Shown: positions 27,928-33,279 of the stretch, piece by piece
Position numbering within the stretch: the first letter of the stretch is position 1
How the letters are laid out: each line of letters begins with the position of its first letter
NCBI GenBank assembly: GCA_963790475.1
Contig: CAWBOS010000010.1
Span: 320,001-384,000 of the forward strand
Direction of reading: 5' to 3'
Length of the DNA: 64,000 nucleotides
From: an uncultured delta proteobacterium
GTDB taxonomy: Bacteria > Desulfobacterota > RBG-13-43-22
Made by a program: the position numbers and the translations under genes
Notes under the pieces: model-generated
What the model was told of the DNA's origin: nothing
Databases searched by the model: none
Seen by the model: only the letters and a program-made list of their open reading frames with translations

Positions 27928-28575
27928 ATGAAAAAACTATCAATTGTCGAAGTTGTCGCAGTAATTTTTGTTTTTTGCAGTCTCTTAATAATGGGAGGAC
28001 AGGCGGTAGCAGCGCCTGATCGTTTGAATTGGGGAAGTCAAGTAAATGCATCACAGTGCGGGTCCCCGCCAAATAATCTCGTCATTAACGTTAACCAGCA
28101 TATAACAGGGGATATTGATTCGGGTTGTGCTGGCAACTATTGGGCATACGATGAATACAATAAACATGTACAAGTTTGGCAGATAGGAGATGGCTCCTTC
28201 TGCGTTGACGTCCGTTATGTGGGTTCATTTACAACAGTCGCTGGGCAAAGCCCTGGAACCGGGTGTGGAGGCAGCGCAGCAATATTAACATCAGGTATTG
28301 AAGGGACTTATGAAGGTGGGTACACAGCCAATGTTATAGGGACCCTTAGAGTTGCTCCTTCAAAGAAAACAAAGGGGAATATTGGATCAATTGATTTTGG
28401 CTGTGATACATCGACGGGAGAATGCCCGGGTTATGCTAGCTGGTTATCATACTATTTCGATACGGGCTATAATTTTTCATATACCTGGTGGGGATGGATT
28501 TACCATGGTGGAAATAATGGAACGTGGGTAAATACAGTGCCCCCGACCGGCAACTCAGGAGATATTATCCCTTAG
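27928..28575 (+). CDS. Secreted Cys/Trp/Gly-rich hypothetical protein
   Basis: Sec signal (AVA|A), 6 Cys in the mature part, WWGWIYHGGNNGTWVN C-terminus, lower GC. Confidence 0.7.
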   Translation: MKKLSIVEVVAVIFVFCSLLIMGGQAVAAPDRLNWGSQVNASQCGSPPNNLVINVNQHITGDIDSGCAGNYWAYDEYNKHVQVWQIGDGSFCVDVRYVGSFTTVAGQSPGTGCGGSAAILTSGIEGTYEGGYTANVIGTLRVAPSKKTKGNIGSIDFGCDTSTGECPGYASWLSYYFDTGYNFSYTWWGWIYHGGNNGTWVNTVPPTGNSGDIIP

Positions 28576-28711
28576 TGTGATGAAATGAGATATTGCCTAA
28601 TTTAGTCGCAAAGAACCAGGCAGGGTCAAATGGCGAGCCGATAGCTTAACGTGTTGAAAAAGTACTTCACCTCTATCCCCCTACGAGGTAGAATCTGGTA
28701 GGGGGATTTTT

Positions 28712-30303
28712 TTGATCAAAGGACCAAACCAGCTCGATGAACGTGTCCCGATAGAAGTCGGCGGGATTCAGGTCAACTTCTGCAAGAATCCACAGTGCCA
28801 GAACTTCGGAGTTCCGGCAAGTACCAAGAGACAGCCCAGAGGGAAAGGAGCAGAGGAACGTGGCCGGGATACTTATAATGTAGTTGGTTCAGGCCGGGGC
28901 ACGCCCATGCTACGGTGCTGTTTTTGCGGCCAATATCCAACGATAAAGAGTAACAAAGCCATTCATGAAGAGCTGAGCCGCTTTTGGAAGCCTTTTGAAC
29001 CCACGGCGATCCCGACCTGCCCAAACCAAGACTGCCCGAACCACCATATAGATACCGAGAAAGGCAAGACTCACTACCACTCATTCGGACGGACCAAAGC
29101 AGGATCTATACGCTATCGTTGCAAGGCCTGCGGCAGAACATTCATTACCGCTTCATCACCGACAATCCGGCACCGGAAACCCCACAAGAATGCTGTCATT
29201 TTCCGTCTTCTGGTCAACAAGGTACCTTTCCGTCGTACCTGCGAGGTGGAAGGGATCTCCATGCCGACTCTTTATCGGAAGATTGATTTTATTCATCGGC
29301 AGTGCCTTTCCTTTGCGGCTGAGCGGGAACGCAATCTTCCCACCATGCCTCTCGCCCGCCTTTATATCGGAGTTGATCGGCAAGACTATATGATCAACTG
29401 GTCGGACGCCAAGGACCGGAGGAACATCATTTTCCGGGCTGTCGGCAGTGCTGACAACACGACCGGTTATGTGCTCGGAGTGCATCTCAACTTTGATCCC
29501 TTAATGGATCCGGATCTTATAGAAAGGGATGCGATTGCCTCGGGTGATTACGAAGTAAAGCCGTCCTATAGACGATATGCCCGCCTGTGGCTCCGGCGCG
29601 ATTACCTAGAGGCCATCAAGAAGGCCCGAGCCCAAAGGTTTGGTGCCCATACAGGATCCTTGAGGGACAACATAGCTGCCACCTATCGGGATGCCGAAAA
29701 TAGGGATGATGTCGAAGTGTTCGAAAGGAGGGACGCTGCGACGCTTTTTATGTGCGGATCAACTCCGAGGCAACCATTGATAAAAAACGCCAGATCCTGG
29801 CAGATAATCGACGCCACATGGAGGCCATGAAGCACCAGAATCCTGACCTGAAGGATTGGCAGGTAAAACTTCTCATGATAAAAGAGAAGATGGCCCAGGT
29901 GGTCAACATTGGCACCTGGCAGGATCGCTGGGTGGAACACCCCTTCCCGAATATGGGAGAGCCCGATAAGGCCATGTGCTATCTGACGGATATCCAGGGG
30001 TATGATGAGGACCATCTCGCCTGGCTCTACAACAAGGCCAGCCTCCACGCTATTGACTGCTTCTTTATGCAGGTCCGGAGGAGATTGTCTTTGCTGGAGC
30101 GACCGATCAGCAGTTCGGCCAGCCCGGGTCGTCGTTGGTTTGGTTATGGCCCTTACAAACCGGTTATAGTCGGCAAACTACTGGACATCTTTCGTGTTTT
30201 CTATAATTATGTGGAAGTGGGGAAGAACAAACAAACCCCAGCTATGCGGCTGGGGCTGGCAAAGGGCAAGATAACTGTTGAGGACATTATCTATTACCAG
30301 TAA
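28712..30303 (+). pseudogene. Large IS1-like transposase with multiple zinc ribbons, split into two ORFs (probable internal deletion near 29740)
   Basis: CKNPQC, CCFC, CPNQDC, and InsA-like GRTKAGSIRYRCKAC plus HTH. C-terminal YNY...TPAMRLGL. The frame changes at gacgct-gc-gacgct. Confidence 0.7.
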
Positions 30304-30358
30304 TAAGGCTGCTCAGAATTTTTCGGTCATGTCTCCTTGCGGAAGATTTCTTTTTAAA

Positions 30359-30395
30359 AAAAAGGACCGTTGATATTGAATCAACTGTCCTTTTT
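30359..30395. terminator. Bidirectional terminator inside the IS right end
   Basis: AAAAAGGAC.GTTGAT / ATCAAC.GTCCTTTTT stem with A and T tracts. Confidence 0.6.
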
Positions 30396-30482
30396 ACTTT
30401 TCTTCAACACGTTAAGCTATCGGCTCGTCTAATTTGGCTCTGCCTTTTTTTATGCACATTTTCGAATGATAATTAACCTATG

Positions 30483-31119
30483 GTAAACCCCCGGCTGTGC
30501 CGGGGGACTCACAAAAGTTTGACAATTACGGGAATATATGAAAGCCCCTCTAACGTGAACCGCTCAAAATTCACAGAAAGAGAGGCTTTCAATGAGAAGC
30601 ACACAGAGTTTAAGTCATACGAAGTGGGAATGCAAATATCATTTAACCTGGATACCAAAATTTCGGAAAAAGGATTTATATGGGGAGCTTCGGAAACATT
30701 TAGGAGAAGCGATCCGAGAAATGGCACGGTAGAAGCGGAAGTGAAGTATTAGAAGGACATCTTATGTCGGATCATGTCCATATGCTTGTTTCGATTCCGC
30801 CCAAATATGCTGTTTCGCAAGTAGTGGGTTACATCAAGGGGAAAAGCGCAATTCATATTGCGAGAGAATTATTTGGGAAGAAAAGGAATTTCACTGGCGA
30901 AGAATTTTGGGCCAGAGGATACTATGTCAGCACAATAGGTAAGGATGAAGAGGCTATCCGTAAGTATATCAAAGAGCAGGAAAAAGAAGATCAGCGAATT
31001 GATCAATTAACGATGTTCTAAGTAAAGAGCCGCCACCTTTGAGGTGGCCCATAGGTTTTTCAACCGCTTTGAGCGGTTCACATATTTCAAGCCTCCGGCT
31101 TTGCCGGAGGTCTGGTGAC
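30483..31119 (+). mobile_element. IS200-type element (tnpA only), degenerate copy
   Basis: Left hairpin CCCCCGGC-TGT-GCCGGGGG. Right end CAAG + CCTCCGGC-TTT-GCCGGAGG + TCTGGTGAC. Homologous to 35189-35811. Confidence 0.9.
30592..31021 (+). pseudogene. tnpA: IS200/IS605 Y1 transposase TnpA with premature stop and frameshift
   Basis: SHTKWECKYH..WIPK then TAG at ~30730. DHVH (HUH), FWARGY and YIKEQ lie in a shifted frame. Confidence 0.88.
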
Positions 31120-33279
31120 GTGCGCCTGGCATGATGCACTGGCCGACCTTCCAGGAATGAACCTGGAAGTAAAACATCCACCGTTACCGGACGGAAGGAT
31201 AACGCCAACAAGGCAAGGGCATTCTCAGAAATGAGGAGTCCGGAGGAAGCATGAGGCAGAATCTGTGTACGTAGCGAACAGCGAACCGACTATATGGCCG
31301 TGGGGAGGAGGTCGAGTTGACGTGACTAAACGAGACCGGATATCCGGTGAACCGAACCGCTGTGAAGTTGGACGGGATACAGGGAGGTTGGTGCATCTTA
31401 CCCAGGGAAGCCCTCCTGCACTGGAACCTAATTGGCGTCAAGGATTTCATAAAACCGAACCGCGAAGGCGAACCCGAAGCGGGGTAGGGTGCAAAGGGTG
31501 GCAGATTCACGGGTAGTACTGAGGACTCAGGGCCGATGAAGCCTGGTAACAGAGCGAAGGATAAAACCCTGACGACCGGGAGAAGGAAAAGAAGGGAAGG
31601 AATCCGATAGAGAACCCACCGCTGGCGATGGTAAACAAACAACTTAAGGACCTATCCTGAAGCCTGGGCAGCCCAAAGATCGTCCTTGGGATGCGGGAAG
31701 CCGTGGACGAGAGGCGATGGAGACGACATTAGAGAGCCGACTTAGAGTTACGATGGTACAAGAAGGGACCAGAAAACCGAAGGGGGATGAACGAAACCCG
31801 CAAGAGGGTACCGGACGGGAAGAGACTTGGACGGTCAACAGGCATCCGGTCCCCAGCCCAAAGGGCTGCTCGTAACCCGGCAATCTTTAATGGAAGAGCA
31901 AGTCACGGAGGAAGTTGGAAGTGAAGGTTAGGGAAGCACTGGAAAGGGTCTACGAACCGAGACGACTGCGGGAGGCATGGCACCAGATTAAACGAAACGC
32001 CGGAGCAGCGGGAATAGACCGGATGACGGTAGAGGAGTTCGAAAAGCGAGAAAGAGAGCTTTTGCAGCTCATCGGCGAGAAGCTGAAAGCGGGCACCTAC
32101 CGTTTCAAACCTGCCAGAAGAGTTCTGATTCCCAAGGAAGGCAGTAATAAGATGCGTCCCCTTGGGATACCGGTGGTCATGGATCGAATAATCAGCCAGA
32201 GTATCAATTTGGTATTTGAGGGGTTGTTCGACCCGGCTTTTACGAAGTCCAATTTTGGATTTCGTCGAGGCCACAGCCAGCATCAGGCGATTAGACATGT
32301 TCAGGGGATAGTGGAAGATGGATATGAATGGGCGGCATCGATAGACTTGAAGAGTTTCTTTGATGAAATCCCGCATGAACTGATATTAACACTTATACGG
32401 CGGAAGATAGCCGATGAGAGGCTGGTAACGCTGATTGCAAGAGCGTTAAGGGCCGGTATCGTTATTGATGGAGAATATCAGGAAACACCCAAGGGATGTC
32501 CACAAGGATCTCCGCTCTCCCCGATGCTATCGAACATTGTTTTGAATGAACTGGACTGGGAATTGGAAAAGAGAGGGCACCGGTACGGTCGATGGGCTGA
32601 TGACTTCCTGATTTTACTTAAATCAGAAAGAGCGGCTGAACGGATCATGGAGGGAATAACGGCGTACCTGGAAGGGAAGCTGAGACTTCCGGTTAACCGG
32701 AAAAAGAGCCAAGTAGCTCCGATTAAAGACATTCCTTTCCTGGGGTTTCAAATACTCAGGGGGAAAATCCGAGTCAGCGACAAGGCCCGGGTTAAATTTA
32801 AGAATAGGATACGAGAACTAACCCGGAGAAACAATCCCTTATCTATGAACCAGGTGATCCAGGAACTCAATGAATACTTACGAGGGTGGATAGCCTACTT
32901 TCGGGTCCAAGAGTTTAGCAAACCATTAGTGGAACTCGATGGCTGGATTCGGAGTCGGCTCAGATCCATGCAACTAAAGAAATGGAAAAACCCCCGCAAA
33001 TTTCAAAGGATGCTAAACCGGTCCGACTATACAGGCCGGGAAACGAACCGAGTCTGGGTCAAGATGAACAAATGGCAATCGGTCAATCGACGGGAGGTTC
33101 GTTGTGTTATGAATCTCCAATGGTTCAGAAGGCAAAGGTTGACCTTTCTAGGTGACTTCATCCAGAGGCAACTACCTCTTGAACTGAAATTCAGTCGCTA
33201 ATCGAAGAGCGGCTTACCTGGCCGGTACGAGCCGTTCTGTTGGGAGGGGGTAGGCCTTCTCGGCTACCTCCTACCAGAT
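31120..33279 (+). mobile_element. Group II intron (IIC-like 5' end, no endonuclease domain)
   Basis: 5' GTGCGCCTGGCATG. Domain V AGAGCGGCT-TACC-TGGCC-GGTA-CG-AGCCGTTCT at ~33206-33238. DVI GGGAGGGGGTAG...CTACCTCCTACCAGAT gives the 3' end. RT ORF inside. Confidence 0.92.
31915..33201 (+). CDS. ltrA: Group II intron reverse transcriptase/maturase
   Basis: GAAGIDRMT, RPLGIP..DR, SNFGFR, IDLKSFFD, GCPQGSPLSP, WADD, FLGF, LRGWIAYF (X domain). No HNH. Confidence 0.95.
   Translation: MEVKVREALERVYEPRRLREAWHQIKRNAGAAGIDRMTVEEFEKRERELLQLIGEKLKAGTYRFKPARRVLIPKEGSNKMRPLGIPVVMDRIISQSINLVFEGLFDPAFTKSNFGFRRGHSQHQAIRHVQGIVEDGYEWAASIDLKSFFDEIPHELILTLIRRKIADERLVTLIARALRAGIVIDGEYQETPKGCPQGSPLSPMLSNIVLNELDWELEKRGHRYGRWADDFLILLKSERAAERIMEGITAYLEGKLRLPVNRKKSQVAPIKDIPFLGFQILRGKIRVSDKARVKFKNRIRELTRRNNPLSMNQVIQELNEYLRGWIAYFRVQEFSKPLVELDGWIRSRLRSMQLKKWKNPRKFQRMLNRSDYTGRETNRVWVKMNKWQSVNRREVRCVMNLQWFRRQRLTFLGDFIQRQLPLELKFSR

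Follow-up and report, generated by a model that had tools for sequence, protein, structure and literature searches.

Several insertion sequences (ISs) that enter palindromic DNA have been described. IS1272/TnSha1, an IS1182-family element of staphylococci, inserts into hairpins, many of them confirmed terminators, with little sequence conservation among them; it cuts within the stem, removing part of the hairpin, and produces no duplication (PMC4923244). Extragenic palindromes are likewise the targets of the ISs aimed at REP/BIME palindromes (PMC1525189) and of the IS110-family element ISPpu9. Here we report on an element at positions 28634-30427 of a stretch of 64,000 nucleotides (nt) from contig CAWBOS010000010.1 of an uncultured delta proteobacterium; this whole stretch is called the window. 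We read the element as a non-autonomous, decayed copy of an IS of about 1.98 kb with a DDE transposase, belonging to a large uncurated family whose nearest described relative is IS1 and which targets the apexes of terminators, and we put the probability of this reading at roughly 85%. [quoted passage not shown]

The family resembles IS1272 in that both insert into terminator hairpins with little conservation of primary sequence. However, it duplicates a 9-10-bp hairpin apex (at 22 of 37 sites), whereas IS1272 deletes a portion of it instead. No match to the IS1182 model was found among the NCBIfam hits of the open reading frames (ORFs) of the window and of four relatives. With the ISs that target REP/BIME palindromes the family shares insertion into extragenic palindromes, a 'safe' intergenic niche. 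Those systems use IS3 or IS110 enzymes on a species-specific repeat, whereas here a DDE enzyme of another lineage enters terminator-like stems that vary with the host. To our knowledge, few DDE enzymes insert at terminator tips under the guidance of structure or symmetry.

The likeness to IS1 lies in an N-terminal zinc finger and helix-turn-helix (HTH) homologous to InsA, and in a duplication whose 9-10 bp come close to the 8-9 bp of IS1. The family differs in its size of 1.98 kb, 2.5 times the 768 bp of IS1A, and in its single ORF of about 590 amino acids (aa) without programmed frameshifting, whereas IS1 has two ORFs and a -1 frameshift. It also has an extra N-terminal zinc ribbon and two large insertions in the catalytic core, targets hairpin apexes and, in some members, carries passenger genes. 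The sequence of the outer inverted repeat is different as well, its length being similar to the approximately 23 bp of IS1.

The window element and its disrupted transposase gene

The element, its flanks and the gene upstream comprise the following features, in window coordinates.

27928..28575, + strand: upstream gene from the ORF list, 215 aa, with a signal-peptide-like N-terminus; its terminator-like hairpin is split by the element
28618..28633, no strand: left arm of the split hairpin, AGGCAGGGTCAAAT (28618-28631), and the 2 nt of flank adjoining the element; left side of a 14-bp stem across the element
28634..28658, + strand: left terminal inverted repeat, 25 bp, perfect (CGAGCC...GTTGAA); register from the MITE duplications and the relatives
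28675..28714, + strand: subterminal hairpin (28675-28707) followed by a T7 run, -24.3 kcal/mol, z -2.6; candidate inward terminator and trap for the ribosome-binding site (RBS)
28712..29734, + strand: N-terminal transposase remnant with two zinc ribbons, the InsA-like zinc finger/HTH and the first half of the predicted RNase H core with D222; residues 1-341 of the relative P0001 at 89%
29722..29728, + strand: junction of a 181-bp internal deletion and frame shift, from protein and DNA alignment to relatives
29722..30303, + strand: C-terminal transposase remnant, shifted to the -1 frame with respect to the N-terminal one; corresponds at 92% to residues 398-591 of P0001
30359..30395, no strand: bidirectional terminator-like hairpin inside the right end, -17.9 (+) and -17.0 (-) kcal/mol, z about -4, U runs after both strands
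30403..30427, - strand: right terminal inverted repeat, 25 bp, perfect (repeat search)
30428..30451, no strand: 4 nt of right flank, the right hairpin arm ATTTGGCTCTGCC and a T7 run; right side of the 14-bp stem

The element is bounded by a 28-nt inverted repeat of 96% identity (28634-28661 and 30400-30427). The outer 25 nt were called perfect in the original prediction, made from the sequence alone, and they have no mismatch on either side (C10:348634-348658 and 350403-350427 in contig coordinates). That prediction had also placed a G(G/A) at the element ends; these letters belong to the flank, since the duplications of MITEs and relatives set the true ends 2 nt further in, at CGAGCC/GGCTCG (28634 and 30427). 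Beyond the ends, AGGCAGGGTCAAAT (28618-28631) pairs with ATTTGGCTCTGCCT and its T run (30432-30451) in a 14-bp stem with two G-T pairs, so that the flanks do rejoin into the G-U-containing terminator proposed earlier, with 2 unpaired nt on the left and 4 on the right between stem and element. The stop codon of the upstream gene, which matched no family in the Pfam and NCBIfam scans, lies 43 nt 5' of the left arm. The 10 nt abutting the element, GGTCAAATGG on the left and TCTAATTTGG on the right, agree at 5 of 10 positions, and the window copy therefore has no target duplication, as had been noted before; the family makes duplications of 9-10 bp.

Two overlapping ORFs are found in the window copy, 28712-29830 (372 aa) and 29752-30303 (183 aa, -1 frame), while the intact relative P0001 has 593 aa in a single frame. 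Against three full-length relatives of 1974-1975 bp, the 1794-bp window element has lost 181 bp after element position ~1092 (window ~29725): its positions 1-1091/1094 and 1092-1794 align with the relatives' 1-1092 and 1273/1276-1975. The lost segment encodes relative residues 342-397, including the invariant FFLDQDS (D381), and to judge from the aligned sequences the deletion likely removes the second catalytic Asp. The original prediction is to be corrected in this respect, as the gene is not an intact reading frame. No other copy of the transposase gene was found in the 6.3-Mb assembly of 20 contigs, and the window element is therefore non-autonomous in this genome.

The two ORFs could also be taken for those of an intact IS1-type element joined by a programmed -1 frameshift at A AAA AAC (29782-29788), as in IS1 InsAB', because the heptamer sits in the frame-0 register (ATA AAA AAC) and the second ORF uses the -1 frame. 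However, intact relatives read as one uninterrupted ORF, the frame changes at the 181-bp deletion about 57 nt 5' of the heptamer, and a fusion at the heptamer would still be without residues 342-397 and D381. The A6C run is ordinary coding sequence in the downstream frame (IDKKRQ; IDEKRQ or IDKKRQ in relatives). Since the deletion shifts the frame and the relatives have a single ORF, we rejected the run as a programmed frameshift site and regard an intact IS1-type element here as extremely improbable.

Family ends, target duplications and end hairpins

The original prediction had proposed to look in homologs for conserved ends and terminator-centred targets, and both were found. One register holds throughout the family, C-n-A-G-C-C...A-A-n-G-T-G-T-T-G-A: the ends CnAGCC...GTGTTGAA are conserved down to about 50% protein identity, and CnAGCC...GTGTTGA recurs in an alignment of 47 left ends. 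Both ends were found at 46 of 82 loci with a position matrix made from the family loci. Because such a matrix comes from the family itself, it locates ends and does not prove them; the duplications serve as the independent evidence for the ends. Full-length elements measure 1.93-2.05 kb.

After three duplicate sites and six sites with too-short flanks were dropped, the 46 two-ended elements represented 37 distinct sites with usable flanks. A direct repeat abuts the ends at 22 of these (9 bp at 14 sites and 10 bp at eight, one with a mismatch), and deleting one copy of it restores a short-loop hairpin with the duplicated segment at the apex. An apex-centred, uninterrupted stem of at least 6 bp with a loop of 3-8 nt was present at 17 of the 22 sites, compared with 3.7% of 117,479 control positions taken from these loci; at the remaining five, the stem is bulged or the loop larger. 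A T run comes after 13 of the duplicated sites and an A run before 14, with both in nine and no orientation bias. A crude ORF call (ORFs of at least 100 aa) puts 16 of the 22 no more than 150 nt from an ORF 3' end, and seven between convergent ORFs. The stems are unrelated between hosts (GCCCCGC, GGGCGCC, GGCCGGTGAA, GGGGGATGC, GCCCTCAG and others), and the duplication is still centred on the apex.

In the mechanism that we propose, the transposase would join both element ends to the target 9-10 bp apart, by cuts placed symmetrically around the dyad of a GC-rich palindrome that has A and T runs on its flanks, so that the duplicated segment would be the hairpin apex. The target would be an intrinsic, often bidirectional, terminator, and aiming at its apex would place the element in intergenic DNA just after genes. 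The InsA-like zinc finger and HTH presumably reads the inverted repeats; the target itself may be recognized by a symmetric dimer on duplex DNA or as an extruded hairpin.

The same genome contains four MITEs of 189 bp with the same repeats (0-2 mismatches) and with 10-bp duplications, three perfect and one with a mismatch. They have only the repeats in common with the IS. Each is intergenic, and within it lies a strong hairpin that has U runs on either strand. A truncated MITE, of which the right half is left, with 3 mismatches in the repeat, lies at C15:13755-13779 of this genome (G000), just 3' of a gene whose product has a tyrosine-recombinase-like end. An older element-end remnant considered beside the MITE at C12:1019105 found no support in a position weight matrix (PWM) scan. 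In the relative genome G014 (C2:69879-70064; loci L026/L028), the first ~32 and last ~33 transposase codons are joined, and this short derivative is an internal-deletion MITE, of an origin unlike that of the 189-bp MITEs.

Hairpins also occur inside the element ends. The 3' arm of the left-end hairpin (28675-28707) holds a Shine-Dalgarno-like AGGGGGA just 5' of the TTG start at 28712. The hairpin has the same position in 47 aligned left ends, with compensatory changes in five of the six consensus pairs, and 39 of 66 distinct left ends passed a strict test for hairpin plus T run. Many members have a TATAAT-like box just 5' of this hairpin or, in this clade, in its loop. Right-end terminator-like hairpins are less general (16-18 of 44); the one originally proposed at 30359-30395 does fold on both strands. 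Bulged end hairpins were missed by a simple terminator scanner and by our first strict hairpin script, and appeared on folding. A block on incoming transcripts is known from IS10 and IS50. The inward hairpin and T-run structures may act likewise, stopping or silencing transcripts that enter from neighbouring genes, while the element's own shorter transcript would escape. The left hairpin would bury the RBS, and together the end hairpins would replace the terminator split by the insertion; we infer these functions from the predicted folds.

Transposase, spread and relation to IS1

Intact relatives encode a single protein of 586-598 aa, larger than InsAB of IS1 as the first reading of the window had it. 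Four Cys pairs are invariant in them (C24/C29, C69/C72, C103/C108 and C137/C140) and make two zinc ribbons that follow one pattern, only the second being InsA-like. The several Cys-pair ribbons, the InsA-like motif and the TPAMRLGL tail that had been picked out in the window protein are confirmed: in the alignment of relatives the tail T569-P570-A571...G575-L576 is invariant, and a profile of 21 relatives aligned with E. coli InsA in hhalign (probability 86.8%, E 4.3e-6, residues 126-191 against 21-84). D222, D248, D381, D404, E477 and E523 are also invariant in the alignment, and D509 is 90% conserved.

No Pfam match, PF03400 (DDE_Tnp_IS1) included, was found for the window ORFs (E<=1) or for four relatives (E<=0.1). 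The NCBIfam IS1 equivalog NF033558 gave 42.3 bits with the first window ORF and 34.7-42.6 bits with the four intact relatives, against a cut-off of 100, and this match (E 7.5e-11) covers model positions 7-140 of 199 only, through the first catalytic strand. NF050000 (IS1/IS1595 zinc domain) scored 22-27 bits, just under its cut-off of 28, and NF048018, a short N-terminal 4-Cys motif and the sole IS256-type model matched, 18-24 bits against 27. The family thus reaches no curated cut-off in NCBIfam or Pfam, which agrees with the IS1-like and possibly unclassified status first given to the element. Among the traits of canonical IS1, it has the InsA-type zinc finger with HTH and a duplication of about 8-9 bp (9 bp at 14 sites, 10 bp at eight). 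Four defining features were tested and are lacking: a score at the NF033558 cut-off, the PF03400 domain, the two-ORF frameshift and the 0.77-kb size. A short motif in the inner half of the inverted repeat also occurs in the two IS1A ends, which is suggestive only.

The AlphaFold model of the protein (pLDDT 76, pTM 0.79) runs b1(D222)-b2-b3-a1...b4(D381)-a-b5...a(D509), which is the RNase H order, D222 falling within b1, while D381 closes b4 and D509 opens the long helix that comes next. It contains two large insertions in the predicted catalytic core, of about 95 and 80 residues, and a LuxR/GerE-type HTH at 157-205. In a VIA-align search of 48,161 chains, the best structural match was the ISCth4 transposase (Z 12.2, 242 residues, 4.0 A), followed by Tn5 transposase (Z 9.7) and by retroviral integrases, TnsB, Hermes, Mu and IstA (Z 7-8.4); Foldseek also ranked ISCth4 and Tn5 at the top (E 0.006-0.015). 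All of the structural matches listed are DDE enzymes. As modelled, the core has the RNase H/DDE fold that the original prediction had suggested looking for, and D222, D381 and D509 are its likely catalytic residues. ISCth4 (IS256 family) and Tn5 (IS4 family) match both this core and the DNA-binding part preceding it. However, sequence identity to them is 10-11% and there is no IS256 or IS4 HMM match except the sub-cut-off 4-Cys motif; the modelled likeness is one of shared fold, not of family membership. When solved structures were searched by sequence with the family profile, eukaryotic C2H2 zinc fingers were the sole matches. In the Protein Atlas the nearest named clusters have no Pfam family, and an archaeal IS1-type cluster at a score of 0.88 is a lead only.

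Homologs at E<=1e-3 number 902 proteins, the best of them single proteins within the size range given above, and a profile search of 1.84 billion representatives gave 2460 clusters (50% identity) at E<=1e-3 and 657 at E<=1e-30. Among 260 candidate stretches in contigs from one genome per species, 228 were confirmed, and these represent many phyla. Eighty were kept, from Desulfobacteraceae, Nitrospirota, Zetaproteobacteria, Gallionellaceae, Geobacteraceae, Chromatiaceae, Pseudomonas, Planctomycetota, NC10 and others. Around the window's own genome, 61 genomes were sampled and six had a match, five of these being among 20 other genomes of the same family; the 41 other families of the phylum gave none. 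In PLSDB, 133 plasmids matched.

At least nine loci have their right end 0.4-2.2 kb past the transposase gene, giving elements of 2.26-4.07 kb. The passenger genes of these longer members sit between that gene and the right end, and include the following.

L051:4293-6319: D12 methyltransferase and NotI-like restriction enzyme
L060:4257-6234: N6/N4 methyltransferase and an ORF of unknown function
L105:4473-6043: HipB-like HTH protein and HipA
L047:4646-5131: PIN-domain protein

The family may already be catalogued, as a non-canonical IS1 subgroup or as an 'unclassified' ISfinder group with these ends and targets. NCBI does label two proteins from metagenome-assembled genomes (MAGs), P0027 and P0041, 'IS1 family transposase'. 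ISfinder also lists a long IS1 subgroup, ISMhu11, of 0.9-4.6 kb with duplications of 0-10 bp, a range that would fit the sizes with passengers. ISMhu11 elements have two ORFs and a frameshift, a layout that this family does not have. A literature search for the name ISMhu11 gave no relevant papers, and full-text searches, whose scope excluded ISfinder and TnPedia, found no description of the family. Its members also match no curated model at cut-off, and each of the seven top plasmid matches (36-53% identity) bears the annotation 'hypothetical protein', the label that the family had been expected to carry. On balance, we think it rather unlikely that the family has been catalogued.

Enterococcus and Staphylococcus plasmids, including NZ_CP014378.1 13213-15165 (locus L112) and about 90 Enterococcus plasmids, carry distant homologs that are full-length (20-21% identity across 97% of the query) and are labelled 'insertion element protein' or 'hypothetical'. 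On an S. aureus plasmid the gene of such a homolog directly adjoins dfrG. Two more weak matches to the IS1 HMM in the window's genome, C10:1481965-1482411 (53 bits) and C10:1392143-1392262 (29 bits), are below cut-off and are possibly other distant IS1-like genes.

Competing explanations and implications

Several observations weigh against the reading proposed here, and they concern the window copy, the link to IS1 and the targets. The original prediction had suggested looking in related genomes for the empty allele of the window site, and none was found in a genus-level search, in metagenome contigs or in public runs. When 13 other genomes of the genus were searched with the left flank, one matched at 71% identity, with a decayed copy of the gene and no hairpin 3' of it; an exact 26-nt search of metagenome contigs gave no matches. 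Parts of the region are present in four public runs of one study; a single contig crosses the left junction (28569-28830) and none skips the element. No read or contig from these runs spans the deletion junction, so the deletion is without independent confirmation. The IS1 link rests on the N-terminal half of the protein and one HMM below its cut-off. E. coli InsB has no significant similarity to the family in hhalign or BLASTP, and a D-D-D/E correspondence with IS1 is therefore drawn by eye only, from strings around D222, D381 and D509 that resemble the acidic-residue strings of InsB in appearance and not by a statistic. The hairpins at the target sites are terminators by prediction.

The manner of target recognition is also in question. 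Every site of the Desulfobacteraceae-type elements has GGCAGRG / CYCTGCC next to A/T runs, a stem present in only 4 of the 166 terminator-like hairpins of this genome, and at three of the four MITE sites just one arm is good, the right half-site being kept without a good left one. Because the arm sequence is shared and hairpins of this type are so few, recognition may be by sequence and not by structure; the enzyme would then read a palindromic consensus that varies between clades, not a hairpin or cruciform, and the link to terminators would be a by-product. However, the stems are unrelated across the family while the duplication stays centred on the apex, which favours symmetry or structure, or else a fast-evolving recognition code. 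We consider recognition by sequence a plausible alternative that we lean against; the enzyme may read structure, symmetry or clade-specific sequence. The target preference first proposed for the element holds as one for terminator-like hairpins, and the targets of this clade have in common the primary sequence GGCAGRG...CYCTGCC as well as structure.

No duplication was found at 15 of the 37 sites, and the window copy is like them. At nine of the 15, a stem of at least 7 bp forms across the element (control 12%), and at five the spanning stem is 12-15 bp (control for at least 9 bp, 2%), with 6-8 unpaired nt on each side, which is the geometry of duplicated sites. Both kinds of site occur in the same clades. 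Our guess is that non-duplicated sites arose by intramolecular transposition or by recombination between copies in related hairpins; that the arms sometimes travel with the element is an alternative that we do not favour. The latter is raised by genome G061, where two copies of one subfamily at unrelated loci (L121 and L126) share 27 nt outside the left repeat, made up of an A run, a GC arm and an 8-nt spacer, and an arm may therefore travel with the element in some lineages. This sharing hints at a co-mobilized arm or at a hairpin that is itself repeated.

Taken to its full extent, a travelling arm would make the hairpin arms part of the mobile unit, with long composite ends (A run, GC arm, spacer and 25-bp repeat) that carry the 'terminator' along. 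The two G061 copies would fit such ends, as would the five non-duplicated sites lying between arms of 12-15 complementary nt. However, the direct repeat of 9-10 bp lies immediately against CnAGCC/GGCTnG at the 22 duplicated sites, where removing one copy restores the hairpin, and arms differ freely between copies with the same ends (L087 against L088, L054 against L055). This genome also has eight unoccupied hairpins of the GGCAGRG type, against 0.86 expected; one of them, C12:917042, has the apex TCAGAAATGG, which is also a MITE duplication. We consider composite ends very unlikely, and prefer insertion into pre-existing hairpin apexes by an IS ending at the 25-bp repeats.

To the right of the element, the window holds other mobile DNA, so that three different mobile elements lie side by side after the gene at 27928-28575. 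An IS200-type Y1 transposase gene (30592-31021) follows the element directly; its C-terminal part (30764-31021) corresponds to Y1_Tnp positions 49-121, its N-terminal part from 30592 runs into stop codons, and the gene looks frameshifted. A group II intron follows at 31222-33201 (Rfam RF02001 at 31222-31398, 63.5 bits), with an ORF for a reverse transcriptase/maturase at 31915-33201 (RVT_1, GIIM). A rise in contig depth and many loose ends at about 31052-31119 suggest a repeat boundary there.

Tentatively, and at somewhat less than an even chance, the results may be extended to a very widespread and essentially undescribed IS lineage, a deep sister of IS1, that homes to the terminator apex by symmetric hairpin or cruciform recognition, perhaps via its extra zinc ribbon. 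The element and its MITEs would supply replacement terminators, and the longer members would ferry restriction-modification and toxin-antitoxin modules.

Our analysis provides exact ends, a duplication length and a rule of target choice for a family of transposases whose thousands of members are mostly annotated as 'hypothetical' or loosely as 'IS1 family', and annotators could use them to delimit these elements and their MITEs. The family lends itself to the study of how a DNA hairpin or palindrome is read by a transposase. With passengers from restriction-modification and toxin-antitoxin systems, it also moves defence and addiction modules. Homing to terminators, if true, would be a safe-harbour strategy that preserves the operon structure of the host, and the predicted inward terminators that the elements themselves carry suggest how a mobile element may minimize harm to its host.

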